A stretch of DNA of 64,000 nucleotides from the NCBI GenBank assembly GCA_937924445.1, contig CALDSX010000009.1:25141-89140 (forward strand). Reading direction: 5' to 3'. Below the pieces are notes generated by a model. That model saw nothing but the letters and a program-made list of their open reading frames with translations, did not search any database and was not told where the DNA came from. The stretch's first letter is position 1. Each line of letters opens with the position of its first letter. The translations under genes and the position numbers were made by a program. Below, piece by piece: positions 5,135 to 50,770 of this stretch. Origin of the DNA: an uncultured Chthoniobacterales bacterium. GTDB taxonomy: Bacteria; Verrucomicrobiota; Verrucomicrobiia; Chthoniobacterales; CALDSX01.

Positions 5135-5722
5135 TTAACCTTCCTTTTGTGCGTAACCCTCCGGCCGAGCCCCGCTGACAAGCAGTTTGCGGCCCATGAA
5201 CTCTCTGTCGTGTAATTCAGCCACTGCTCGTTTTGCGTCGTCGATGCTTTGCATTTGCACAAATGCAAAACCTTTTGAGCGGTGGCTGTTCTTGTGGCTG
5301 ACCACTTCAGCGTTCTGCACTTTTCCGACGCAATTAAAGAGCGCAAACAAGTCGCTCTCTGTCGCATCGTACGAGAGGTTCCCGACGTAAAGCCGCGGGG
5401 ATGTAACTTCTAGGCAGACAGGTGGGCGTGGCGTTCGGACAGGTTGATACGCGGCTGCCTCGGCTATCGGTTTCCGGGTGGGTGATGTTTCATTGGGTTG
5501 AGACGCCTTGGCCGAGGATTTTTGGCCTGTCGTCGCGGAGGATTTGCTGCCGCTCAACAGGTTGGAGATGAAGGTCGTAATCCGTTGCAGAACACTCTGC
5601 TGAGCGACGGCCATCCGTCGCTGTTTGGAAAAAGCATAATGTCTTCGAGATTTCGACCCGGAGAAACCGCGTTTACGGCGTCGGGATTTGCCGCCGCTGC
5701 GGGCGGTCGTCGTGTCATTCAT
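5135..5722 (-). CDS. RRM-type RNA-binding protein with basic Ser/Arg/Lys-rich N-terminal extension
   Basis: C-terminal RRM with RNP2 LYVGNL and RNP1 KGFAFVQM. The track ORF extends to 6172, but its first 150 codons are Cys/Trp-rich and not protein-like. I place the start at the Met of MNDTTTARSGGKSRRRKRG (ATG at 5722-5720). Confidence 0.8.
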   Translation of the reverse strand: MNDTTTARSGGKSRRRKRGFSGSKSRRHYAFSKQRRMAVAQQSVLQRITTFISNLLSGSKSSATTGQKSSAKASQPNETSPTRKPIAEAAAYQPVRTPRPPVCLEVTSPRLYVGNLSYDATESDLFALFNCVGKVQNAEVVSHKNSHRSKGFAFVQMQSIDDAKRAVAELHDREFMGRKLLVSGARPEGYAQKEG

Positions 5723-6193
5723 GGATGTTGTATCAACGATTGTTGTATGCAACGGGCTCTCCTCAGTGCTTGCCTGTGCGAAAACAAACAATGGCAGGAG
5801 ACGGCTCTTTAGCCACCACGCAAAGCAGCGGAGGATGGCCCGCGATCTGTTATTTTTGATATTTTCGGGGCAGCCCACAAACGAGCACAAGCCCGCTCGT
5901 AGCACGCCACCGATGTCCTCTGTTTTTTGACTGTGCTCTTGCTGGTTTTGCGGGTGAATACTGCCGCCGCCTATTTGCCATGTCGCGCAGGGGGACCATG
6001 GAGAGAATTCAGCGAGAGAACACAAGCGCAGGAGGGGCTCTGCCCAAAAATTTGGGCGATCAAAGACATAGAGTTGATTTGAAAAAGCTCCTCTTAACAC
6101 ACATGTGAAGATACACTTGGCGCGCCTGATGGCAAGAGGCTGGAATTTTAATGTTGCGGAAGAACCGAACACGTCAATGTTAATTGATTAGAG

Positions 6194-8178: not shown

Positions 8179-10155
8179 ATGGATATTGATCTTCTCAAAA
8201 AAGCGGCCAACCAGGCGCGCGGCCTCGCGATTGATGCTGTTCATGCCTGTAGCAGTGGGCACCTCGGTCTGCCTCTTGGTTGTGCGGAAATTGGTGCAGT
8301 TCTCTTCGGATATGCTCTTCGCCATGATCCTTCTGATCCCGGCTGGCTGAACCGCGACCGGTTCGTTCTTTCCGCCGGCCATGGAAGCATGTTTCTCTAT
8401 GGATGGCTCCACCTCAGCGGCTACGCACTGCCCATAGAGGAGATCAAAGCGTTCCGCAAAATGGGCTCCAAAACGCCCGGACATCCCGAATTTAAGGAGA
8501 CGCCGGGGGTCGAATGCACCACTGGCCCCCTCGGGCAGGGCGTGGGTAACGCTGTCGGCATGGCTGTGGCTACCAAGATGGCCGCAGCCCGCTTCAACAC
8601 CTCTGAACATACAATTTTTGATCATCACGTTATTTGTCTTGCTGGAGATGGGTGCCTCCAGGAAGGCGTGGCCGCCGAAGCCTCCGCTTTTGCAGGGCAT
8701 TTTAAACTCGATAACCTCATCTTCATCTACGATTCTAATGATGTCACCTTGGACGCCCCGGCAGCCGCCACCCAAAGCGAGGACACGCAAAAACGCTACG
8801 AGGCTTATGGGTTTGATGTGCAACAGGTGGACGGGCACGACATGCCCGCTTTCCTGGCCGCCTTCCAAAAAGCAAAATCCGCAAAAGGCCGCCCGCAACT
8901 CATCATCGCCAAAACTGAGATTGCCCGAGGTATTCCGGAAGTGGCAGGGACTGCCAAAGGCCACGGTGAGGGTGGGGCAAAGTTTGCTGAGGCAGCCCGG
9001 AGAGGTCTCGGGCTGCCGGTGGAGCTTTTCCACGTGTCCGAAGACGTTCGAGAGTATTTTGCCGAGCATGCCAAATCTCTCGCCAAGGAACATGCGGAAT
9101 GGAACCTCAAGTTTGAAGCATGGCGTTTTGCCAACCCTGGCTTGGCACAGGAACTACAGAATATTCTTTCAGGGCGCCTCCCGACCGGGCTTTTGGATCA
9201 TATTCCTCCGTTTGATCCCTCTGTCAAAGTGGCTACGCGTAAGGCCGGGGCTGATGTTCTCCAGCCCCTCGCCAAAGCCTGTCCTCAGCTTATCAGCGGA
9301 AGCGCCGATCTTCACGGCTCAACATTAAACATGATTGCAGGCGGTGGCGATTTCACCCCCGAGAACCTCGCCGGAAGAAATATTCGCTTTGGAATACGTG
9401 AACATGCTATGGGAGCCATCCTCAATGGCTTTGCATACCACGGCATTTTCCGGCCTTCAGGTGCTACCTTCCTCGTCTTCTCCGATTATCTTCGACCCTC
9501 CATCCGAGTCGCCGCGCTCTCTCACCTGCCAGTTATTTACATTTTCACTCACGACTCTGTCGGGGTCGGTGAGGATGGTCCCACACATCAGCCTGTCGAA
9601 ACCGTCAGCGCTCTTCGGCTGATTCCAAACTTGGACGTTATACGCCCGGCCGACCCCGAGGAGACTGCCGCAGCGTTTGTCTCTGCTCTCGAACGCACGA
9701 GCGGTCCAACGGCCCTCATACTCACCCGTCAAGCGGTGCCAAACCTGCCACTCTCCGCTGAGCAACGGCGGCAGGGCGCTCTGCGCGGAGGGTATGTCGT
9801 GAAAGAGGAATCCACTCCGCTGGAATGTATCGTTATTGCCTCGGGCAGCGAAGTTCAGCACGCCCTGGCCGCTGCCGAAACTCTCGGTTCAGGCGTCCGT
9901 GTCGTCAGCCTTCCTTCCTTCGAAATTTTTGACCGCCAGTCGGCTGATTACCGTGAACAAGTACTTCCGTCTTCTTGTAAAAAACGGGTTGCTATCGAGG
10001 CCGGAGTGACCTCCCTGTGGTGTAAATATGTCGGAACGCAGGGCCGCATCATCGGCATCGAACGCTTCGGCTTGAGCGCCCCTGGTGGAGAGGTGATGAA
10101 GGCTCTTGGGATTACCGCCGACGCTGTCGTTGCGGCTGTTCGCGAACTCGCCTGA
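8179..10155 (+). CDS. tkt: Transketolase
   Basis: [21 protein letters not shown], a TPP-binding segment. [18 protein letters not shown]. The track ORF opens at 8092, but [21 protein letters not shown] at 8179 matches the usual Tkt N-terminus. Confidence 0.97.
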
Positions 10156-10167
10156 CTCGGGCCGTTC

Positions 10168-10647
10168 TTAGCCTCCCGAGCGTCTGCCCGATTTACCTTC
10201 TCCTCTGTGGTAGGGATGACCTTTGATTATTGTAAAAGCCCGATAAATTTGCTCCAGCAAAACCACCTGCGCGAGTTCATGCTGAAGAGTCAGCGGGCCG
10301 AGCGAAAGCGACCATGCCGCACACGATCGCACCTCCGCCGAATGGCCTTCTGCTCCGCCAATGAGGAAAGCAAGATCTTTTCCCTCTCGAACGATGTGAC
10401 GTTCCAGACGCTTCGAAAACGCCTCGCTGGAAAGGTTCTCTCCTCTTGGATCAAGTGCCACAACAAGGGCACCGGATACTGCAGCGAGAAGATCTCTCCC
10501 TTCAGACAGAGAATTTCCTGGCGCGACAGAACGAAATTCCAACCGAATAGGCCGTGCCAAAAAAACCGTCCGTTCTGCATATTCGGCAATCGCTAACCTG
10601 GCATATTCCAGGGCGGGACGACCAACGGCAGCAACAATAAGTTTCAA
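10168..10647 (-). CDS. rlmH: 23S rRNA (pseudouridine1915-N3)-methyltransferase
   Basis: 159 aa, SPOUT-type. MKLIVAAVGRP start, LIGGAEGHS, and LSLGPLTLQHELAQVVLLEQIYRAFTIIKGHPYHR at the C-terminus. Confidence 0.9.
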   Translation of the reverse strand: MKLIVAAVGRPALEYARLAIAEYAERTVFLARPIRLEFRSVAPGNSLSEGRDLLAAVSGALVVALDPRGENLSSEAFSKRLERHIVREGKDLAFLIGGAEGHSAEVRSCAAWSLSLGPLTLQHELAQVVLLEQIYRAFTIIKGHPYHRGEGKSGRRSGG

Positions 10648-10694
10648 TTCTCTGGAACTCGTTGGCTTCGCGTTGCCGTCAAATATTTTTGATT

Positions 10695-11108
10695 CTACTC
10701 CGAAGATTGACGGATCACTGCGGCGATAGCAGTTTTGTCGAATTCAAGCTTTACGTTGTCGCCGGCCTTTAAAATAAACGTTTTATCCTTCACATTGGCC
10801 ACAATTCCGTGAAGCCCGGCGTTTGTAACCACTTTGTCACCCGTTTTCACCGAGCCGATGAGTTTTTCGTGCTCCTGCTGCTTCTTTTTCTGCGGACGGA
10901 TCATCACAAAATAGAGGAGCACAAACATGAAAATGACCGGCGTGAGCATATCGAGAAGGCTCGGCTGTGGCGGTGCGATAGGCACCTGTGCCGGAGGCTC
11001 GGTGGCGACCTGGGCAAGAAAAACAGGATGATTATTCATAGCTAAATCATTCATCGGTGCGAAACGGTTTTTTGCCAAGGGAAAGTTACAAAATGAGGTG
11101 TCGGACAA
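10695..11108 (-). CDS. yajC: Preprotein translocase subunit YajC
   Basis: A single TM followed by MIRPQKKKQQEHEKLIGSVKTGDKVVTNAGLHGIV. The true start may be an internal Met (11054 or 11039). Confidence 0.85.
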   Translation of the reverse strand: MSDTSFCNFPLAKNRFAPMNDLAMNNHPVFLAQVATEPPAQVPIAPPQPSLLDMLTPVIFMFVLLYFVMIRPQKKKQQEHEKLIGSVKTGDKVVTNAGLHGIVANVKDKTFILKAGDNVKLEFDKTAIAAVIRQSSE

Positions 11109-24397: not shown

Positions 24398-26557
24398 ATG
24401 AAGACAAAAATCCTTTCTGTGTTTGTTGCCATCCAACTGCTCTTTTGTGCGGCACTTCACGCCGGTGGCCTTGCTCCTGACGATGGAGGTGCCAACGACT
24501 ATTTCGGTTGGAGCGTTTCCCTATCCGGCAACCAGGCAGTGACAGGAGCCTATGCAAATGACAGCTCTCCCGGATTTGATCAGGGGGCAGCCTACATCTT
24601 CCGCAACGTTGACACCGCCGGCACAGGCTACACTACGGAGGACTTGAGGCTCATCACTTCCGATGCCGCCAATCAAGACCAACTCGGCGTTTCCGTTGCC
24701 ATTTTTGGGACCAACGCGGTGGTGGGAGCATACGGGCACGATTCTGGCGGCACCGATCGCGGTGCAGCCTACATCTTTCGCAACATCAACACAGGGAGCG
24801 GCAACAAAACGCAGGATCTCAAATTGACCGCTTCTGACGGACTCGACGGTGATTACCTTGGCATAGCGGTTGGCATCTCTGGCAACCTCGCCATCGCCGG
24901 AGCCCAAGGCCATCTTGTGAATAAGGGAGCCGCTTATCTCTACCGAGATATCGACACGGCTACCGGCAACAAGACCGAGGATCTTAAACTCCTCGCCTCC
25001 GACGGCGCAGCCAACGACGCCTTCGGGCGTTACTTGTCCCTCTCCGGCACCATCGCCATCGTTGGCGCTTACACCCATGACCTCTCTGGTGGATTTGACC
25101 AGGGCGCAGCCTATATCTTCAGAAATCTTGACTCCGGCTCCGGCACAAAATCCGAGGACCTAAAACTCCTCGCCTCCGATGCGGCCAATCAAGATCAATT
25201 TGGTGCCTCGGTCAGCATCTCTGGCATTAACGCCCTCGTCGGAGCCTACGCCCACGACACGGGCGGCACCGACCGAGGAGCGGCTTACCTCTTTCGCACT
25301 GTTAACACTGGCAGCGGGAACAAAACTCAAGATCTCAAACTCACGGCCTCTGACGGCACGGACTACGACAACCTGGGTATAGCCGTTAGCCTCTCCGGCC
25401 ACACCGCAATTGTGGGTGCGGATGGTGACGATATCGGCTCGAATGCCAATCAAGGGAGTGCTTACATTTACCGCAACCTCGATACCGGCTCGGGCATTCG
25501 CACAGAAGATGTGAAAGTTTACGCCTCCGACGGCAGCTCGGGTGACAGCTTCGGTCGCTCCGTGGCACTCGACGGAGACACATTCGTCGTAGGTTCCCCT
25601 TTCGGCAGTCTGACAGGCAAGGCTTACACTGGGAGTGTCAGTGCACTGACCACGCTTAATGACGGCGACGCTTACCGTGAAATTGGCCTCATCAGCTTTG
25701 AATCCCGCACTGATTGGATTATTGGCAACACAACTTCCAACAACACCGTCAAACTCTCTGCGGGCGATACCGCCACTATAACGGCCCCGAGCAAATTGGT
25801 CCGGATCGGCGTTGGCTCATTCGCCTTTTCCAACACACTAATCATTGACGGCACCCTCAACGCGAACCAGATCGAAGTTGGTGCTAGCGAGAATGGCGGC
25901 AACGCTCTTTTTGTCAACGGCGTGGTCAACGCCCCGGTCAATGTCAATTTCGCTTCTCTTTTAGGTGGCACAGGAATCGTCAACGGCACAGTGCAGCTCA
26001 AGGATTCCGCCACTGTCTCCCCAGGCAATAGTATAGGAACCTTGACAACCGGGAGTAACATTTGGGAGGAGCACGCCGAATTTAATCTGGAATTTAAAAC
26101 CGACGGCACCGGCACAGCAGGCATAGAATGGGATTTTCTCTCTATCCTCGGTTCGTTGACAATTAATGCGACCTCATCAGGTCCATTTATCCTCAATCTT
26201 TTCACCATGAGTAACTCCACAACGCAGGGTATGCTTTCTTCATGGGATCCGAACGTTAACCACACCTGGGCCGGCTTTGTGCAGACCACCGGCGGGATTA
26301 CAGGGTTTGCAATAGATAAATTTACCATAGACACCAGCAACTTTCTCAATCCGATCAATGGCGACTTCACTCTGGCTCTCAACGGAAATAACCTCGATCT
26401 TGTTTACACAGCGGTTCCGGAGCCCGGCACAATGGCGCTTTTTAGCTTGGTCGCCATCCCAGCAGTCCTACGACGTCTTCGCAGCCAACGGCAGTTTTCC
26501 CAAGGCGGGGCGAACCTTGGCCATGCGAAAAAACAGTCGGAGGCGATCCCTCGCTAA
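24398..26557 (+). CDS. Secreted seven-blade FG-GAP-like beta-propeller protein with beta-strand-repeat region and PEP-CTERM sorting signal
   Basis: Signal peptide MKTKILSVFVAIQLLFCAALHA. Seven repeats of the form D.FG.SV..SG..A.VGA...D....GAAY.FR. SPGNSIGTLTTG motif. C-terminal VPEPGTMALFSLVAIPAVLRRLR is a PEP-CTERM anchor (PEP, TM helix, Arg cluster). Confidence 0.85.
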   Translation: MKTKILSVFVAIQLLFCAALHAGGLAPDDGGANDYFGWSVSLSGNQAVTGAYANDSSPGFDQGAAYIFRNVDTAGTGYTTEDLRLITSDAANQDQLGVSVAIFGTNAVVGAYGHDSGGTDRGAAYIFRNINTGSGNKTQDLKLTASDGLDGDYLGIAVGISGNLAIAGAQGHLVNKGAAYLYRDIDTATGNKTEDLKLLASDGAANDAFGRYLSLSGTIAIVGAYTHDLSGGFDQGAAYIFRNLDSGSGTKSEDLKLLASDAANQDQFGASVSISGINALVGAYAHDTGGTDRGAAYLFRTVNTGSGNKTQDLKLTASDGTDYDNLGIAVSLSGHTAIVGADGDDIGSNANQGSAYIYRNLDTGSGIRTEDVKVYASDGSSGDSFGRSVALDGDTFVVGSPFGSLTGKAYTGSVSALTTLNDGDAYREIGLISFESRTDWIIGNTTSNNTVKLSAGDTATITAPSKLVRIGVGSFAFSNTLIIDGTLNANQIEVGASENGGNALFVNGVVNAPVNVNFASLLGGTGIVNGTVQLKDSATVSPGNSIGTLTTGSNIWEEHAEFNLEFKTDGTGTAGIEWDFLSILGSLTINATSSGPFILNLFTMSNSTTQGMLSSWDPNVNHTWAGFVQTTGGITGFAIDKFTIDTSNFLNPINGDFTLALNGNNLDLVYTAVPEPGTMALFSLVAIPAVLRRLRSQRQFSQGGANLGHAKKQSEAIPR
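24464..25648 (+). repeat. Seven tandem coding repeats (55-64 aa each; the seventh is shorter) forming the propeller blades
   Basis: Blade boundaries counted from the translation: aa 23-86, 87-144, 145-199, 200-258, 259-316, 317-375, 376-417. Blades 1/4, 2/5 and 3/6 are the most similar pairs. Confidence 0.85.
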
Positions 26558-43870: not shown

Positions 43871-46702
43871 GTGCACGGTAATGTAACGAAGATGTTACAA
43901 AAAATTGCTGGCAACGATGATCAATCGGACCTTGTTCTTAATATGCTTAGACCCGTTCGGAGATTAGCGGCCTCCGCCGTGGCAATAATCTTTTTGTGTG
44001 GGCTTGTCCGCTTGCAGGGGAGAGGAGAGACGGCAGAAGAATTGCTCAACCGCGGTTCAACAGCATACTCTGCGGGTAGCTTTAAAGAGGCTGAAGTCGC
44101 CCTGGCGAAGTTTCTCACGGATTATGGGCAGAGCGGACAGGTTGCTCAGCTTTTACCGCGGGTTTTGCCGATGTTGGCGATTTGTCAAATTCGTAACAGC
44201 AATTTTGAAGATGCAGGGGCTACAATAGATCAAGTGTTAGCTCTGAGGGAATCCCTTCCCTCCGCAGCCATCCTCGAAGAGTTAAGGTTTTGGCGTGGGA
44301 TTTGCCACCTTAAGAAGGAGGAGTTCGAGCTGGCTCGTGAGACATTTCAAAAATTCGCGACCTCCCATCCGCGTTCGGATAAGCGTGTGGAAGCGTTGCT
44401 CCTCTCAGCCACAAGTTATTCTTTGGAGAAAAATTGGAAAGAATCAGCGGATAACCTTGCCCAATTAATTCAAACACTCTCACAACCTGAAAAAGGCCGG
44501 GCCGTTGTCCTGCGGTTCCATTGTCTTTTGCAACTCGGTGCACTTGACGAGGCACTTCGGCTTCTTATCGAATTTTTTCCCCAACTCGACCAGATGATTC
44601 AGATCTCCGCAATGCAAGTCTTTGCCTTGGAACTCGGCACCGCTTTCCTCGCTGAGCAACGCCATCTTGACGCCATCGCCTGTTTCCAGAGAATTTGGAG
44701 TCGCGCACGCGTGTTGGCGCTACAACAGGAACGGCTCAACGTCCTTACCGCCCGCAAAACAGCCGCAGAACAACGCAAGGACACTTTTACCATTTTCCAA
44801 ACATCCCAGCTCCTTGCCAAGGTGGAGCGGGAATTGAAGATTTTCCGTGAATTTCCATCATTCGACGCCGCTTTGCGGCTCCGACTGGCGTCGGCTTACC
44901 TTGCAATGGAACGTTTCCGAGAGGCAGCGCTTGTGCTCGATGCGATGCTTCATGAAATGCCTGCGGATGAAATTGTGGAAGGAGCATCGGCTACTTTGCT
45001 AAAGTGCTGGGGTGAAATAGAACGATGGCCAAAAGTCATCGAGGCTGCAGATCTTTTTATCGCCAAATTCCCTCAATCAAAAAATGTGCCCGAGGCACTT
45101 TTCCTGAAAGCTCGCGCACAGCAGGAGCTTGCGGCCTACCCCGACGCAGTGGCCACCTATGATCAACTCGCAAAAACCTTTCCGGATTCTTCTCTCGCAC
45201 CACGTGCGAAATTTATGGCGGGCTACACACAGCTAATGGCCGAAGAATATCACGATGCTTCTGAACGAATGGAGGCGGTCTACGACAAACATCAGAAGCA
45301 TGAAATTGCCGAGGCGGCAGTCTTCTGGAAAGGGATGGGTCTTTCTATGGCCAAAGCACATCAAGAGTCCCGCGCCCAAATGGAGCGTTACCTCAATCTT
45401 TACAAGAACGGAGCCTACCGGACCCAGGCGCAGTTTCGTAAGGCCTACTCCGCACATTCAATGAAGGATTACCAAACAAGTATTTGTGAATTGCGCTTGT
45501 TTCTCAGGGATAACCCCGATTCTGCGGAAGCAGATGAAGCACTTATCCTTCTGGGTGACGCATTGATGGCGACCGGCGAGATGCAACAGGGTATTGCGGC
45601 CTACAAACGCATTTCACAAACAAACCCGCGTTTTTTCGAAGAGGGTTGGTTTAAAGTGGGCAGAGCTCTCAAACAACTGGAAGATCTCGAAGGCATGAAA
45701 AAACACTTTGAGGAGTTCATCCAGTTGCGGCCGAAGAGCACCAGGCTTCCTGAGGCGTTTTACCAGATTGGTTGGGTGCTAAGACAACAACAACGTGAGG
45801 ATGAGGCGAAGAAACTCTACTGGTCAGCGGTCAAAGAAATGGGTGACGATGCCGGACGCCACGCCGTGGAGGATTTGTTGCTAGGCCTTTTGCGCCTCCA
45901 CAGGGGCGAAAAAGAAAAACATTCTTTACGTGAAGGACTACGCGCACTACGGGACAAGGCCGAGGCAGAGGGCAAAAAGGTCTTTCAAAGTCGTTTGGCA
46001 TGGGCCCTTTCCAAGACCTACAGCAAAGACGATGAGATCATGGCCCAGACATTGCTCGATGAAGCAGGCCGACTGGCCGATCCTGCCACTGCAAGCCCCC
46101 AACTCCTCGCCGATGTTGCGGAAGCCTCTTACAAAGCAGATCTCAAAGAACGGGCAGCCCTCCTCTATCGCAACTTGATTAAATGGAACCCCCGCGCTCC
46201 ACAAAAAGACCGCGCTTTGTTTTGTCTGGGTTTCATAGCCAAAGAGCAGGGACGCTCCGAAGAGGCACTCAAACTCTTCGCAAGATTCCAGAGGGAAGTC
46301 CCCGACTCCCTGCTCGCCTCCCGGGTTCTCTTGGCAAAATCAGCCATCGAGCTTGACTTAGGCCAAGCCGATGAAGCCTTAAAAACCCTCGAGACCCTTC
46401 TGGCTACCCAGGGGGCAGCAGGTCGAGACAAGGCAGCCGCCCTTTTTGCGATAGGCGAAATTTTTCAATCGAAAGGCGATCTCAAAAAAGCCTATGCCTA
46501 CTACCAGCGCATCTATGTTTTATATTCAAAATTCGGCGATCTTGTCGCCAAGGCCTATCTTCGCTGCGGCACTCTGCTTGAGACCCTCAAAGATCTCGAG
46601 GGCGCTCGCAAAACTTACGAGGAAATGTTGGGGCGGGAAGATCTACCAGATGGAGAAGAACTTCGAACGGCCCGGGAACGGCTTGCGCAGCTCGCCTCAT
46701 GA
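43871..46702 (+). CDS. Large TPR-repeat protein (first gene of the ExbB/ExbD/VWA operon)
   Basis: 943 aa. Many TPR-like A..Y..A..(F/Y).....P units (for example FPQSKNVPEALFLKARAQQELAAYPDAVATYDQLAKTFPDSSLAPRAKF). An N-terminal hydrophobic segment follows the Met at 43943, which may be the true start. Confidence 0.8.
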   Translation: MHGNVTKMLQKIAGNDDQSDLVLNMLRPVRRLAASAVAIIFLCGLVRLQGRGETAEELLNRGSTAYSAGSFKEAEVALAKFLTDYGQSGQVAQLLPRVLPMLAICQIRNSNFEDAGATIDQVLALRESLPSAAILEELRFWRGICHLKKEEFELARETFQKFATSHPRSDKRVEALLLSATSYSLEKNWKESADNLAQLIQTLSQPEKGRAVVLRFHCLLQLGALDEALRLLIEFFPQLDQMIQISAMQVFALELGTAFLAEQRHLDAIACFQRIWSRARVLALQQERLNVLTARKTAAEQRKDTFTIFQTSQLLAKVERELKIFREFPSFDAALRLRLASAYLAMERFREAALVLDAMLHEMPADEIVEGASATLLKCWGEIERWPKVIEAADLFIAKFPQSKNVPEALFLKARAQQELAAYPDAVATYDQLAKTFPDSSLAPRAKFMAGYTQLMAEEYHDASERMEAVYDKHQKHEIAEAAVFWKGMGLSMAKAHQESRAQMERYLNLYKNGAYRTQAQFRKAYSAHSMKDYQTSICELRLFLRDNPDSAEADEALILLGDALMATGEMQQGIAAYKRISQTNPRFFEEGWFKVGRALKQLEDLEGMKKHFEEFIQLRPKSTRLPEAFYQIGWVLRQQQREDEAKKLYWSAVKEMGDDAGRHAVEDLLLGLLRLHRGEKEKHSLREGLRALRDKAEAEGKKVFQSRLAWALSKTYSKDDEIMAQTLLDEAGRLADPATASPQLLADVAEASYKADLKERAALLYRNLIKWNPRAPQKDRALFCLGFIAKEQGRSEEALKLFARFQREVPDSLLASRVLLAKSAIELDLGQADEALKTLETLLATQGAAGRDKAAALFAIGEIFQSKGDLKKAYAYYQRIYVLYSKFGDLVAKAYLRCGTLLETLKDLEGARKTYEEMLGREDLPDGEELRTARERLAQLAS

Positions 46703-47646
46703 AGATGTCATTCGCTGCCTTTGGGATTACTCTCGCTCTTGCCGTAGCGCATGGGACAGAGTCTGGCACCCCCACTCCAGGTCCCGCCGCCTCTAAAGAC
46801 GTGATCTTTAGGCTCTCAGGCGGAGTGCTTGCCGGAAGGATTTTTGCTTTTGACCACGACGCAATCCGCATGGAAGTCGATGTCATTCCCGGTCAACCAC
46901 CCGGCCGGATTGCCGTTCCAAGAGCGAACATCCTGCGTATTGAATTCGCGGAGGATCCCGAAGCGGAGGCACTTTTGGCAGCGCGGAATCTTTCACAGTT
47001 TGATGCGATCGAAGCGCATTGGCTCAAACGGCGTCCCACCCTCTCAATCGAAGGTTCCAACGCTGGCGAGTTTGGGCTTGCTACCGCCGAACTTCTTCTC
47101 GACCGCGCTCGCTCCGGAGATCGCGAGCGGGCACTGCAACTTTTTGAATTGATCGAGCGAGAAGATTGGTTCGAACTTCGAAAATCTTCCGCCCGCGGGG
47201 GCAGACTTAAGGCAATGGTACTCTTAGGCCGTGCCAACGAAGCGATTGAGGAAGCCCGCCAGGTGCTTTCCCAAACGGAAGATCCCGGTGTTCTTATTGA
47301 ATCTCATCATGTTCTCGGCGAAGCTTCCTTCGCGGCTTTAAAAAAACTTGTCGAAGAGAACCCGCGTTGGAGAGAAGATCTGTTCGTGCGCCCCGACTAT
47401 GACCGCTTGCTCAATGAAGCGCTCGACCACTATCTTTTCGCACCTCTTTTTCACGGTTCCGTGGAGGAAGCCGCGGCTCGCGGCTTGTGGGCGGCCGGCC
47501 AAGTATTGGCATTTCACGGTGCATTCTCCGAACAAAAAAAACTTGCGAACGATATCACCGCCCTTTACCCCCGCAGCTCTTTTGTAAATCAGGCATTGTC
47601 TGTTCTTTCAGATGCCCCTAAACCTCCCTCACGCCCTGCCGAATAA
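46699..47646 (+). CDS. Hypothetical secreted helical-repeat protein
   Basis: 315 aa. Signal peptide MKMSFAAFGITLALAVAHG. The start overlaps the TPR gene stop (ATGA). No recognisable family motif. Confidence 0.55.
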   Translation: MKMSFAAFGITLALAVAHGTESGTPTPGPAASKDVIFRLSGGVLAGRIFAFDHDAIRMEVDVIPGQPPGRIAVPRANILRIEFAEDPEAEALLAARNLSQFDAIEAHWLKRRPTLSIEGSNAGEFGLATAELLLDRARSGDRERALQLFELIEREDWFELRKSSARGGRLKAMVLLGRANEAIEEARQVLSQTEDPGVLIESHHVLGEASFAALKKLVEENPRWREDLFVRPDYDRLLNEALDHYLFAPLFHGSVEEAAARGLWAAGQVLAFHGAFSEQKKLANDITALYPRSSFVNQALSVLSDAPKPPSRPAE

Positions 47647-47696
47647 AATCCCTTATATTTCGCATTATATTTAACCACACTGAAAACCAATCCAAC

Positions 47697-48512
47697 ATGA
47701 AAACATCGTACCATTATAGCCACCCACGCCTTGCCACCCTTCTGCTTCTGTTTTGTCTTTTTACCGCACCGACTGCTGTGTCTGCTCAGAATGATGCCGC
47801 GCCGACTGTGAAGACCAAGACGCTGCTCGATCTTTACAATCAAGGCGGGTTTCTCATGCACCCGATCTTGCTCTGTTCCATCGGCACTATCGCGGTCTGT
47901 GCCTACTGCCTGCTTCAGATCAACCCAAAGAAGATGGCACCAAAAAGCCAGTTTGACGCGCTGAGCCACTTCATGCGCGTGCGCGACCCGAACAGCGCCT
48001 ACGAGCTTTGCCAAAACAACCCCAACGCGTTGGCAAACACCACTGCCGCAGCTTTGTTGAAAGTAAACTTCGAAAGGGAATTGGCCAATAAGGTATCAAT
48101 GGAACAGGCAGCCGCAGAAACACTCAACACAGAGGAAACCCGCCTTATGATCTGGGTGAATTACCTCAACGTGTTTGCCACCATCGCCCCGATGCTCGGT
48201 CTCCTCGGCACCGTTACCGGCATGATCTCTAGCTTTGACCAACTTGCCGCAGGTAAAAGCGAACCGCAGGATCTCGCAGGTGGTATCGGCCAGGCTATGA
48301 TCACCACAGCAGGCGGACTCATCACAGGCATCCCTGCAATGTTCTTTTATTTTTATTTCCGCAACAAACTCATGGTCGCCATCAATGACATCCAGCGCAA
48401 CGTGACCTTCCTCATTGACGTTCTATCGGGGGAACTCAAACTCGAGGGGGCCGTCGAGGAAGCCATCCCAACTGCAGAGACCTCAGGGAGCACAGCAAAC
48501 GCTCAGGCTTGA
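47697..48512 (+). CDS. exbB: MotA/TolQ/ExbB-family proton channel
   Basis: 271 aa. Conserved C-terminal core IAPMLGLLGTVTGMISSF...GGIGQAMITTAGGLITGIPAMFFY. It also has its own N-terminal signal peptide (LATLLLLFCLFTAPTAVSA). Confidence 0.9.
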   Translation: MKTSYHYSHPRLATLLLLFCLFTAPTAVSAQNDAAPTVKTKTLLDLYNQGGFLMHPILLCSIGTIAVCAYCLLQINPKKMAPKSQFDALSHFMRVRDPNSAYELCQNNPNALANTTAAALLKVNFERELANKVSMEQAAAETLNTEETRLMIWVNYLNVFATIAPMLGLLGTVTGMISSFDQLAAGKSEPQDLAGGIGQAMITTAGGLITGIPAMFFYFYFRNKLMVAINDIQRNVTFLIDVLSGELKLEGAVEEAIPTAETSGSTANAQA

Positions 48513-48545
48513 TCCACTCAGTCGGCTTTTACAAACAAAACCGCC

Positions 48546-48953
48546 ATGATCGTCCGCCGCCGATCCCACGAGGAAGTCAGCTTTCAACTGGCTCCTATGA
48601 TTGACATGACTTTCCTCCTGCTGGTCTTCTTCATGGTCACGACCAAAATCAGCAAGGAACAGCTCAAAATGGATATCAAACTCCCGAAGGCCTCTCATGC
48701 CGAGATCCCCAAAGACCTCTCCAACCGCGACATCATTAACATTAGCGCCAACGGGGATTACTATCTTGGTGACCGTCTGCACTCGACCAAAGAGATGGCT
48801 GAATATTTGAAAAACCGGTTTATCAATTTTCCACCGCTGCGGATTTATGTTCGTGCGGATCACAACACGCCGGCAAAGAAAATAAAAGAACTCATGCGGC
48901 TGGCCACCGAGGCCGGAGCCATTGATGTGATTTTCGGTTCTTACCAGGATTAA
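48546..48953 (+). CDS. exbD: ExbD/TolR-family biopolymer transport protein
   Basis: 135 aa. N-terminal FQLAPMIDMTFLLLVFFMVT with the conserved Asp in the TM. Confidence 0.9.
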   Translation: MIVRRRSHEEVSFQLAPMIDMTFLLLVFFMVTTKISKEQLKMDIKLPKASHAEIPKDLSNRDIINISANGDYYLGDRLHSTKEMAEYLKNRFINFPPLRIYVRADHNTPAKKIKELMRLATEAGAIDVIFGSYQD

Positions 48954-48998
48954 CGTTATGGTCTGCTTCTGCCCACGTCAGCAAACCAACCCTGCCCG

Positions 48999-49448
48999 AT
49001 GAGACTCAACCGACGAGATCTCGGCACGGTCGAGATTCAGATGGGGCCCATGATTGACATGGTCTTCCTGCTCCTTGTTTTCTTCATGGTGACAGCCAAA
49101 CCCACTAAGCAGGAGGCCGACATAGGTCTCAAGCTTCCGGGCACTGTTACCCAGGAAGAGGCTTTGGAAATGCCTGACGAGCAAAGAATCGTAATACAAG
49201 CCAATGGTCAGGTAGTTCTTAACGATGCTCCCATCGATAGCCACAACAGCAGTGACCTGCCGCGCCTTCTGGCCACCCTCGCACGCTTCAAAAAAACGGC
49301 CGACGCCAACCGATCCGAAGCGCTCGTAACAATCGACCCTCACGACAGCGTCCCACATCAGCGGATTGTGGATGTGCTCAACACCTGCGCGAAGGCGGAG
49401 ATCACCGGGGTGACTTTTGCCGACAGCCCACCTGGGGAGGAGGAATAA
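48999..49448 (+). CDS. exbD: ExbD/TolR-family biopolymer transport protein (second paralogue)
   Basis: 149 aa. IQMGPMIDMVFLLLVFFMVT, and HQRIVDVLNTCAKAEI in the periplasmic domain. Confidence 0.9.
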   Translation: MRLNRRDLGTVEIQMGPMIDMVFLLLVFFMVTAKPTKQEADIGLKLPGTVTQEEALEMPDEQRIVIQANGQVVLNDAPIDSHNSSDLPRLLATLARFKKTADANRSEALVTIDPHDSVPHQRIVDVLNTCAKAEITGVTFADSPPGEEE

Positions 49449-49452
49449 TCCA

Positions 49453-50586
49453 ATGCCTATCGCTGCCACACCTCTCTTATCAACCAGACCTAAAAAACCG
49501 CACACACCGCCTGACGTCGCACGCCGACGCAAAGTCATCACATCCGTCATTACATTATCTCTCCTGATCCATTTAGTCGCCGGGCTCGGGGCCGGGCTTT
49601 TCATTGTGGCCAAATATGTGTTCCAACAGCCGGCCAAATTCGAGGTGAAAAAAGACATCCGCCTCCCGGCAAAAGAGCGAGAGCATCGGATGAACATGGC
49701 TGAATTTGACGCCATGACACCCAAACCGGTTTTCAACGAAAAGCTCGCTAGTCTGCGCCCAACAAATTTTGCATTGCCTGATCTTCCGAAAGTCCCGCTG
49801 GACCAAATGCTCCCGCTCGATCCTGCCTCAATTATTTCGGATCAAGTCAGCAGTCTGGTCGGCGCGGCGGGAAGTGGCTCCGGCGGTGCGGGCTCCGATG
49901 GTCTGGGTGGATTCGGATCTGGCATGAGCTTTTTCGGCATTAAAGACACGGGCCGTTCCGTCTTGATTATGATTGATGTGTCCGATTCGATGTTCGGACG
50001 AACCGGAGATTATGATTATCACACAAGAAGTAAACTTCGCGAAGGAAAAGAGCAGAGCTTTCAGGCCGTTCGCAACGAGGCCATCAAGTTAATCGATGGG
50101 CTTGGGATTAATACTCGCTTTGGGATTGTCCGCTGGTCTGGCGGGGCCTACAGTTGGCGTCAGGAACTGGTGCCCGCCACAGATCAGAACAAAGAGGCCG
50201 CCCGGAAGCACATCCAGGAGCAGGTGGATGTCAAAACTGCCGCACCTAGGGATGGCCGTCCAGGGGGCACACGCCATGATTACGCGTTGGAGGAAGCCTT
50301 CCGGCTTAAGCCGGAAATCATTTTTATGCTCACTGATGGGAACGCTACTGAACCAAAAGGCGGGCGTGGAGAAATCTCCCCTATCCCGGCCCGGCGCATT
50401 TATGAAGTCGCCGAATCAGGTCAGCGCGGACTCGAAAAACCCGCGCGGCTCCATGTGATTTACTACTTAACTGGCGAAGCCAAAAACGAGGAGGAACGGA
50501 TGCTTCGCGGTCTCGCATCTCGTAACGGCGGCAAATTTTCTAAAATCAAAGCACCTCGCCTGCCCTCTCCAACGGAGCGGAGGTAA
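49453..50586 (+). CDS. Membrane-anchored VWA (MIDAS) domain protein occupying the TonB position
   Basis: 377 aa from the ATG at 49453, 4 nt after the exbD stop. Basic N-terminus. One TM (VITLSLLIHLVAGLGAGLFIVA). A Pro/Lys-rich then Gly/Ser-rich linker. VLIMIDVSDSMFG (DxSxS) and FMLTDGNAT are typical of VWA domains. No TonB C-terminal motif recognised. Confidence 0.75.
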   Translation: MPIAATPLLSTRPKKPHTPPDVARRRKVITSVITLSLLIHLVAGLGAGLFIVAKYVFQQPAKFEVKKDIRLPAKEREHRMNMAEFDAMTPKPVFNEKLASLRPTNFALPDLPKVPLDQMLPLDPASIISDQVSSLVGAAGSGSGGAGSDGLGGFGSGMSFFGIKDTGRSVLIMIDVSDSMFGRTGDYDYHTRSKLREGKEQSFQAVRNEAIKLIDGLGINTRFGIVRWSGGAYSWRQELVPATDQNKEAARKHIQEQVDVKTAAPRDGRPGGTRHDYALEEAFRLKPEIIFMLTDGNATEPKGGRGEISPIPARRIYEVAESGQRGLEKPARLHVIYYLTGEAKNEEERMLRGLASRNGGKFSKIKAPRLPSPTERR

Positions 50587-50770
50587 TCGCGGCCAGAGCG
50601 AGAAATAATTTAAAGGCTTCTGCCCGACTCGTGTTGAAAGGGAAAAAAACCGAGTATTTTGCACTCGCAGTCATCCATCCGTCGAGGTAGAGTTGGCGGT
50701 TTGTCGTTGGATCTTTCCGCTTTATTCCACCCGCAGACATAACCCCATGTTTTTCGAACGACCTTTTTGA

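Follow-up and report, generated by a model that had tools for sequence, protein, structure and literature searches.

A putative TonB/TolA-like force transducer ending in a VWA/MIDAS head, encoded behind a TolQ/TolR-like motor in an uncultured Chthoniobacterales bacterium

We analysed a 64,000-nucleotide stretch of DNA from an uncultured Chthoniobacterales bacterium (NCBI GenBank assembly GCA_937924445.1, contig CALDSX010000009.1, positions 25,141 to 89,140 of the forward strand; hereafter the window), in which the gene at 49453-50586 encodes a 377-amino-acid (aa) protein with the membrane topology of TonB and a C-terminal VWA domain that carries a metal-ion-dependent adhesion site (MIDAS). It is probable that this protein is a TonB/TolA-like force transducer with a MIDAS-mediated grip, and its sequence features support membership of the vWA 'force transducer' class described in silico by Williams-Jones et al. 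(Mol Biol Evol 2025; PMC12204202), an assignment made by the features described for the class and not by a match to the seed sequence. The gene is the last of six on the plus strand (43871-50586), which are best explained as one operon encoding, in addition, a candidate proton-driven motor and two TPR-type proteins. An initial annotation, made from the letters of the window alone, had described a TonB topology ending in a VWA/MIDAS domain, and each element was recovered here: a basic N-terminus, one transmembrane (TM) segment, a linker of about 100 aa, a VWA fold and an invariant MIDAS. Its suggestion of a motor, driven by the proton-motive force (PMF), that acts on a metal-dependent binding domain is also supported, with the coupling between the two put forward below in conditional terms. 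Within the reach of sequence, structure prediction and comparative genomics, this interpretation holds up. The parts of the gene are the following.

49453-50586 (+), gene of the VWA-head protein, 377 aa; TonB/TolA topology; putative vWA force transducer
49537-49611 (+), aa 29-53, TM helix, hydrophobic, including VITLSLLIHLVAGLGAGLFIVA; S36 at 49558-49560 and H40 at 49570-49572
49612-49833 (+), aa 54-127, conserved linker, 14% Pro and 11% Lys
49834-49920 (+), aa 128-156, Gly/Ser-rich hinge, 34% Gly and 24% Ser; predicted local distance difference test (pLDDT) score below 50 in the AlphaFold2 (AF2) model
49921-50562 (+), aa 157-370, VWA domain, placed by AF2 and Foldseek
49975-49989, 50269-50271 and 50335-50337 (+), MIDAS residues D175-x-S177-x-S179, T273 and D295, placed by alignments

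At the level of the structural model, the C-terminal head is confirmed as a VWA fold with a complete MIDAS. The AF2 model, based on 37 homologues, has pLDDT above 90 across most of aa 157-370, and in a Foldseek search against the PDB the top of the list consisted entirely of VWA domains (E 2.6e-11 to 1e-5). Matches include ITIH4 (2.6e-11), ITIH1 (7e-10), 4fx5, the VWA module of the PilB pilin and a Bacteroides fragilis aerotolerance-related membrane protein (4jdu, E 6.6e-07). The initial annotation had read this end as VWA and had seen no TonB_C-like segment. The latter point stands, as TonB_C (PF03544) gave no match in the 377-aa protein even at E<=0.1, whereas Pfam did not by itself bear out the former: VWA_2 (24.4 against a gathering score of 27), VWA (21.9 against 23.8) and VWA_3 (19.2 against 27) all fell short in the window protein, although other family members clear the Pfam VWA threshold with 27.8 and 30.2 bits. 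Because of these sub-threshold scores, the assignment was taken from the structure and from the family members, both of which confirm it. The MIDAS residues D175, S177, S179, T273 (in GGTRHDYA) and D295 (in TDGNAT) are invariant in the 37-sequence alignment and at least 90% conserved in 58 genome-derived sequences, and the site is predicted to bind a divalent cation.

At the other end of the protein, aa 1-28 are basic (7 K/R against 1 D/E) and lead into a TM helix in which S36-L-L-I-H40 forms an S-x-x-x-H motif and Asp is absent. This motif adds a point in favour of a motor-driven transducer that the initial annotation had overlooked: in established work restated in PMC12204202, the S-x-x-x-H residues of TonB (S16/H20) and TolA (S18/H22) bind the motors. 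H40 is invariant in the 37-sequence alignment, and the TM His is present in 77/77 full-length genome-derived homologues, a set obtained from 80 species-level genomes. Position H-4 is occupied by S in 56 of these homologues, by V in 19 and by T and A in one each. A TM helix with S/H and no Asp suggests a peripheral, TonB-like type and not a pore-inserting one.

The linker had been described as Pro/Lys-rich and then Gly/Ser-rich, and this composition was found, although not as the plain low-complexity spacer that such a description implies. Several motifs are kept across the family (a strand-like F-x-V, REH(K/R)MN, PKP, LPxLP and DQMLPLDPS), which in the window protein read as a strand-like A-K-F-E-V-K, a candidate 'motor box', followed by REHRMNM, PKP, LPDLP and DQMLPLDP. 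The TM His and the MIDAS are also kept at a tightly constrained spacing of 131-149 aa. Over the linker the AF2 model is mostly of low confidence and without a globular fold, helix 75-88 being the sole confident element. Both the TM His and the linker motifs are retained in all the groups of gene linkage considered below, stand-alone genes included.

The genes preceding that of the VWA-head protein, and the site that follows it, are these.

43871-46702 (+), TPR943, 943 aa (936 aa from the start chosen by an independent gene caller)
46699-47646 (+), p315, 315 aa, without a family match
47697-48512 (+), ExbB/TolQ-like protein, 271 aa; Pfam MotA_ExbB, 9.5e-26
48546-48953 (+), ExbD/TolR-like subunit 1 (ExbD1), 135 aa; Pfam ExbD, 2.9e-21
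48999-49448 (+), ExbD/TolR-like subunit 2 (ExbD2), 149 aa; Pfam ExbD, 1.6e-22
50679-50699 (+), terminator-like hairpin followed by a T-rich tail, 3' of the VWA gene; a consensus match only

Across the six genes the intergenic gaps are -4, 50, 33, 45 and 4 nucleotides (nt). The ATG of the VWA gene (49453) lies 4 nt past the stop codon of ExbD2 (49446-48), as the initial annotation had stated, and it is preceded by a strong ribosome-binding site, GGAGGAGGA, at 49436-49444. An independent gene call on the public contig gave the identical six genes and the identical 377-aa product, and a database protein (P0001) is 100% identical to it. A terminator scan gave no convincing match in the interval between exbD2 and the VWA gene, the only weak match (49582-49599) being inside the VWA gene; the site at 50679-50699 is the best placed and likely marks the end of the operon. 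These results agree with co-transcription of the VWA gene with exbBD, and we regard the single six-gene operon as the best explanation, with the same fair degree of confidence as the reading as a whole.

The motor subunits appear, by score, marginally nearer to TolQ/TolR than to ExbB/ExbD. The closest solved relatives of the ExbB-like subunit, which has an N-terminal signal-like extension, are TolQ (2.9e-09) and then ExbB (1.8e-07), and that of ExbD2 is TolR (3.7e-05); the NCBIfam equivalog scores of the motor subunits are all far below the cut-offs. The TM segments of ExbD1 (PMIDMTFLLLVFFM) and ExbD2 (PMIDMVFLLLVFFM) both contain Asp. Given that the two proteins share only 31% identity, their pairing within the ExbB pentamer would be heterologous. 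Elsewhere, exbD2 and the VWA gene form two-gene units with a 4-nt overlap (L023/L082 on JBJTQJ010000025.1, in L082 at 9537-11101, and L025), and no ExbB, ExbD1, TPR or p315 gene is found within 10 kb of these units, which points to a specific pairing of ExbD2 with the transducer.

The VWA family comprises 740 homologues detected at E<=1e-3, and for the top 120 E is at or below 1e-100. Matches and loci with a named source belong to Verrucomicrobiota or its subgroups, except for one metagenome-assembled genome (MAG) labelled Xanthobacteraceae and a few entries named only 'bacterium' or 'metagenome'. Gene linkage was counted in the 52 of 80 genome loci that were informative (at least 6.5 kb of upstream sequence), with partners detected by hidden Markov models (HMMs) within 10 kb.

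TPR-p315-ExbB-ExbD-ExbD-VWA, 15/52 loci
TPR-p315-VWA, motor genes absent within 10 kb, 12/52 loci
ExbB-ExbD-ExbD-VWA, TPR genes absent, 2/52 loci
ExbD2-VWA only, with the 4-nt overlap, 2/52 loci
p315-VWA, 1/52 loci
VWA gene without any such partner within 10 kb, 20/52 loci

The exbB-exbD-exbD-VWA order of the window, whose recurrence bears on the initial proposal of a motor-linked module, is thus found again in 17/52 loci, in addition to the two exbD-VWA pairs. The VWA gene lies beside motor genes in 19/52 loci (37%), beside TPR-p315 in 28/52 (54%) and beside neither in 20/52 (~38%), the stand-alone genes being in unrelated genomic contexts. In gene order, neither the motor link nor the TPR link is obligatory. 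Four MAG contigs labelled Akkermansia sp. or A. muciniphila (L024, L033, L036 and L038) have the TPR-p315-VWA arrangement and lack motor genes. When the L038 protein was used as the seed of a search, neither a cluster named Akkermansia nor a large gut-derived one was among the matches listed, the largest of which has 56 members and no named source; the contigs may be loosely labelled, or a close homologue may be missing from the type species.

The TM helix and linker also occur without the VWA head. A profile of this N-module (aa 24-128, window 49522-49836, 105 positions), searched against 1.84 billion representative proteins, matched 253 at E<=1e-3. Among the best 150 of these, 99 proteins of 300-900 aa were used for a census of heads, and their C-terminal parts fall into clusters of 52 VWA-type, 37 PA14-like and 5 alpha/alpha-toroid proteins, plus 5 singletons. 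In the PA14-like cluster (for example P0168, P0171, P0174, P0181 and P0200), 18 members match Pfam PA14/GLEYA at E<=1e-3, some above the gathering score; PA14 and GLEYA are carbohydrate-binding folds. The toroid heads (for example P0252) are squalene-cyclase-like alpha/alpha-toroid repeats resembling SQHop_cyclase_C. On the cytoplasmic side, a SAM domain is present in 14/99 proteins, as in P0249, where it is N-terminal to the TM helix, and a Ser/Thr protein kinase domain in 2/99, a hint that some transducers may be regulated, or may oligomerise, through their cytoplasmic part.

Genes with PA14-like and toroid heads take the slot of the VWA gene after exbB-exbD-exbD. In L092 (2-6122), TPR and p315-like genes are followed by ExbB, ExbD and ExbD subunits 67%, 67% and 59% identical to those of the window and then by a PA14-headed transducer; L090 (361-3274) has the same order with identities of 66%, 63% and 58%, and in L093 (2-1637) an ExbD2 66% identical to that of the window is directly upstream of a PA14-headed transducer. 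A more distant genome (L088, 116-7488) has TPR, TPR-like, ExbB, ExbD and ExbD genes followed by a toroid-headed transducer. PA14-headed genes are also found alone, one of them adjoining a sulfatase gene. The N-module is an evolutionary unit whose homologues carry other heads, and the simplest reading of the sequences suggests that it is a motor-coupling unit with exchangeable heads. Several transducers may share a single motor, much as several TonBs are served by one ExbBD, and such sharing would explain the stand-alone VWA genes. Within the window, no second N-module gene is present.

The operon begins with two proteins that are both periplasmic and TPR-type. TPR943 contains many YbgF/BamD-type TPR units (Pfam TPR_6, 3.5e-28; YfiO, 7.8e-24) and exceeds the cut-off of NCBIfam tol_pal_ybgF, with 166.8 bits over 8 stretches. 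Its homologues have signal peptides of the signal peptidase I type and no lipobox, and it is directly upstream of the operon of the VWA gene in 27/52 informative loci. The gene of p315 overlaps that of TPR943 by 4 nt, and its product has no Pfam or NCBIfam match. In the AF2 model (pLDDT 80.9, from a shallow alignment, as a word-indexed homologue search gave only 6 proteins), a signal peptide is followed by a small beta domain (aa 34-82) and a TPR-like helical repeat (aa 87-304), with weak Foldseek matches to the TPR proteins PilF, LGN and BamD (E ~2e-3). On this model, a cryptic TPR-like nature of p315 is moderately supported. The protein is conserved together with TPR943 and the VWA gene, also at loci lacking motor genes, and a 309-aa counterpart of similar build has the same slot in the distant toroid-head operon L088. 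Extended peptides are the typical ligands of TPR domains, and the linker of the VWA protein, being conserved and poor in structure, could plausibly be bound by TPR943 and p315.

From the observed domain anatomy, motif conservation, operon structure and linkage statistics, we infer motor coupling and force transduction, and likewise the kind of ligand and the cellular process considered here. The 377-aa protein would fill the role of TonB/TolA in a PMF-driven envelope machine, in which ExbB/TolQ-like subunits and a heterodimer of the ExbD/TolR-like paralogues would make up a 5:2-type proton-driven motor. The TM helix would dock outside the ExbB pentamer via S36/H40, and the strand-like motif that follows the membrane probably has the ExbD periplasmic domains as its pairing partner, with ExbD2 the likelier of the two paralogues. 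The conserved linker and the Gly-rich hinge would span the periplasm and carry the VWA head, whose MIDAS-bound divalent cation would provide the grip on an acidic residue in a partner; that partner would then be pulled, or cyclically released, by the activity of the motor. TPR943 and p315 are the best candidates for binding the linker motifs or the head.

Several observations weigh against this force-transducer reading. The conserved alternating P-x-A-x-F-x-V-x-K (aa 60-68) is strand-like in sequence, but the monomer AF2 model contains no beta strand in this proposed motor-box region. The resemblance of the TM helix to that of Escherichia coli TonB is at the level of the motif only and we do not claim homology: hhalign places S36/H40 in register with S16/H20, in an alignment of 14 columns that is not significant (E 0.094, probability 0.6%). 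The VWA gene stands alone in 20/52 informative loci and in another 12/52 it comes after TPR-p315 but has no motor gene within 10 kb; in such loci coupling would need a motor encoded elsewhere. The operon encodes no outer-membrane component, and no deletion phenotypes have been reported for any member of the class (Williams-Jones et al. 2025, PMC12204202).

The loci that lack motor genes are also those that favour a different view of the protein, namely a passive, Bat-like scaffold, in which an inner-membrane-anchored VWA adaptor assembles with TPR proteins and is not energised, the adjacency to exbBD being a lineage-specific accident. The TPR-p315-VWA loci (12/52), the stand-alone genes (20/52), the structural match to 4jdu (E 6.6e-07) and a weak match of TPR943 to NCBIfam BatC (22.7 bits against a cut-off of 175) are all in keeping with it. 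A plain anchor, however, has no need of the polar TM His and Ser, which are conserved in all linkage types, and for this reason we rank the scaffold as the least likely of the readings and consider it improbable; ExbD2-VWA pairs with overlapping start and stop codons exist, the N-module likewise follows exbB-exbD-exbD when it carries other heads, and the operon has no MoxR or DUF58 gene, nor does the protein have a second, C-terminal TM segment. If the protein is a force transducer, as we favour, it may do the work of Tol-Pal by the same mechanism, with tethering or constriction of the outer membrane and coordination with peptidoglycan, the VWA protein standing for TolA and TPR943 for CpoB. 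The slight nearness of the motor subunits to TolQ/TolR, the position of the operon amid housekeeping genes, the tol_pal_ybgF score of TPR943 through its 8 repeated stretches and the discovery of the published class from a species lacking both TolA and TonB (PMC12204202) speak for such an analogue. The YbgF match reflects generic TPR_6 repeats, however, no TolB-like or Pal-like gene is in or beside the operon, and the exchange with PA14 lectin-like heads fits ligand capture better than mobilisation of Pal; we hold this role to be rather unlikely.

Capture and import of glycans or other substrates, again by the same mechanism, comes first in our ranking of cellular processes, ahead of the Tol-Pal-like envelope role and the passive Bat-like scaffold, even though it too is doubtful. 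In such a system, VWA, PA14 and toroid heads would grab polymers or carriers in the periplasm or at the outer membrane, as a Verrucomicrobial version of the energised, 'selfish' type of polysaccharide uptake that is possibly related to MUL1. PA14-like heads do replace VWA in operons whose ExbB/ExbD subunits are 58-67% identical to those of the window, and a sulfatase gene lies beside one stand-alone PA14-type gene, but the operon contains no gene for a carbohydrate-active enzyme (CAZyme) or a transporter. The Akkermansia MUL1 locus (Davey et al. 2023) may be a relative and is treated as a lead only, not used as evidence: according to the annotations in the supplementary tables of PMC11480725, mul1A (Amuc_0544, annotated 'hypothetical') is near Amuc_0546 (ExbD/TolR) and Amuc_0548 (MotA/TolQ/ExbB) in A. 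muciniphila, two to four genes away, and published summaries state that the mul genes are needed for the uptake of mucin products. The possible likeness of Amuc_0543-0548 to the window proteins is one of annotation. Against this link, no gut A. muciniphila cluster is among the listed VWA-family matches, and one paper reports no MUL1 synteny in aquatic Akkermansiaceae. A broader proposal, which we advance only tentatively, is a machine with exchangeable ends, in which one TolQR-like motor and a TPR pair serve paralogous VWA, PA14 and toroid transducers, the paralogue encoded on the motor side varies by lineage, and polymers are captured or imported without TonB-dependent receptors by a relative of MUL1. 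Of this, head exchange is observed, whereas the shared motor, substrate capture and the MUL1 link are not. If true, with the MUL1 relationship, it would provide the first phenotype for the vWA force transducer class.

The rest of the 64-kb window is ordinary chromosome, with rpoD, dnaG, miaA, transketolase, class II ribonucleotide reductase, methylmalonyl-CoA mutase, truB and ribF. No canonical tonB or TonB-dependent receptor gene was found among the 26 window open reading frames (ORFs) scanned with Pfam. PADLOC models did not match any of the six operon proteins, and a role in anti-phage defence (for example, like that of Zorya-type MotAB modules) is not supported. An alternative TTG start for the VWA gene (49417, 389 aa) was rejected, the ATG at 49453 having both the ribosome-binding site and the length of the database protein. 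An antisense ORF (48978-49736, minus strand, 252 aa) that overlaps exbD2 and the start of the VWA gene, both conserved, was set aside as a mechanical artefact, most likely a by-product of the codon composition of the coding strand. Two other genes of the window deserve mention. A 719-aa protein encoded at 24398-26557 (+), unlinked to the operon, contains seven repeats of the FG-GAP type (Pfam FG-GAP_2, E 4e-89), which is also the type that makes up the beta-propeller of integrin alpha; the VWA head, for its part, resembles the integrin I-domain. A 345-aa protein encoded at 5135-6172 (-) has a C-terminal RRM_1 (E 1.9e-20) as its sole recognised domain, preceded by ~260 unassigned residues.

To our knowledge, TonB and TolA are the only well-understood routes by which inner-membrane energy is delivered to the outer envelope of diderms. 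If the force-transducer reading is true, the VWA protein represents a third kind of transducer, through which a 5:2 motor drives other work and the target is gripped via a metal-dependent adhesion site, in a phylum, Verrucomicrobiota, known for polysaccharide degradation and gut colonisation. The window offers a clean and complete example, with six genes intact, of a class known from one computational survey, and its value in this respect is confirmatory. The second TPR-like partner, the variable linkage and the alternative heads are concrete targets for first experiments.

Among the known systems, TonB shares with the window protein an N-in single-pass topology, the S-x-x-x-H motif in the TM helix, a gene position after exbB-exbD and a linker that spans the periplasm. 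The window protein differs in lacking TonB_C and in having a linker of fixed length with conserved motifs in place of Pro-X repeats; its head would bind a metal-coordinated acidic residue, whereas TonB adds a beta strand to the TonB box. TolA resembles it in the SHLS-type TM motif, a Gly-rich segment before the head, a motor leaning towards TolQ/TolR and a YbgF-type TPR protein in the operon, but the window protein has no TolA C-terminal domain, and tolB and pal are absent from the operon and from 10 kb on either side. BatA and BatB are VWA membrane proteins encoded alongside TPR proteins in aerotolerance operons, and those of Bacteroides and Leptospira have in common with the window protein a membrane-anchored periplasmic VWA domain, encoded with TPR proteins, and the structural match to 4jdu. 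In contrast to them, the window operon includes a motor and has neither a MoxR AAA+ ATPase nor DUF58, and the protein has a single, N-terminal TM segment of TonB type. The Agl-Glt system of Myxococcus combines a TolQR-type motor, TPR proteins and the VWA/MIDAS adhesin CglB, an outer-membrane lipoprotein, while its Glt transducers carry TonB_C-like domains. Both systems thus unite a motor of this type, TPR proteins and an adhesive VWA/MIDAS domain in one envelope machine, but in the window the VWA domain would belong to the inner-membrane transducer itself, and no glt-like outer-membrane genes are present at the operon.

Two published vWA families are closer. The second of these consists of TolQ-only operons in which the vWA protein has an ExbD-like trans-pore helix (PMC12204202); it shares with the window a TM-tethered vWA protein adjoining a TolQ-like gene, but differs in that the window has two ExbD genes and a TM helix with S/H and no Asp. 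The vWA force transducers proper, a family seeded on Tichowtungia aerotolerans and spanning several phyla, Verrucomicrobia included, are described as combining an SHLS-type TM helix, in which a His is conserved, with a disordered linker that includes a 'motor box', a domain II of ~100 residues and a vWA C-terminal domain (PMC12204202). In Planctomycetes-Verrucomicrobia-Chlamydiae (PVC) bacteria their gene order is TPR, tolQ-like, two tolR-like, vWA, and in AlphaFold 3 models the His of their TM helix occupies the motor site used by TonB/TolA (PMC12204202). The window protein shares the SHLS-type TM helix with its His, a linker of about 100 aa (aa 54-156), the vWA head (aa 157-370) and the gene order, and it does not depart from the class in any essential respect; one TPR gene was published for the class, whereas the window operon has two TPR-type partners, TPR943 and p315. 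The initial annotation knew of no described function for such a module, and this still holds for the function, which the authors state to be unknown while speculating on gliding motility, but not for the class itself, published in 2025 with the same mechanistic proposal (PMC12204202). The terms MIDAS, 'metal ion', PA14, lectin and 'carbohydrate-binding' are absent from the main text of that paper. Relative to it, the present analysis adds the p315 partner, the variable linkage of the VWA gene to its motor and TPR neighbours, and the occurrence of the N-module on PA14-like and toroid heads.

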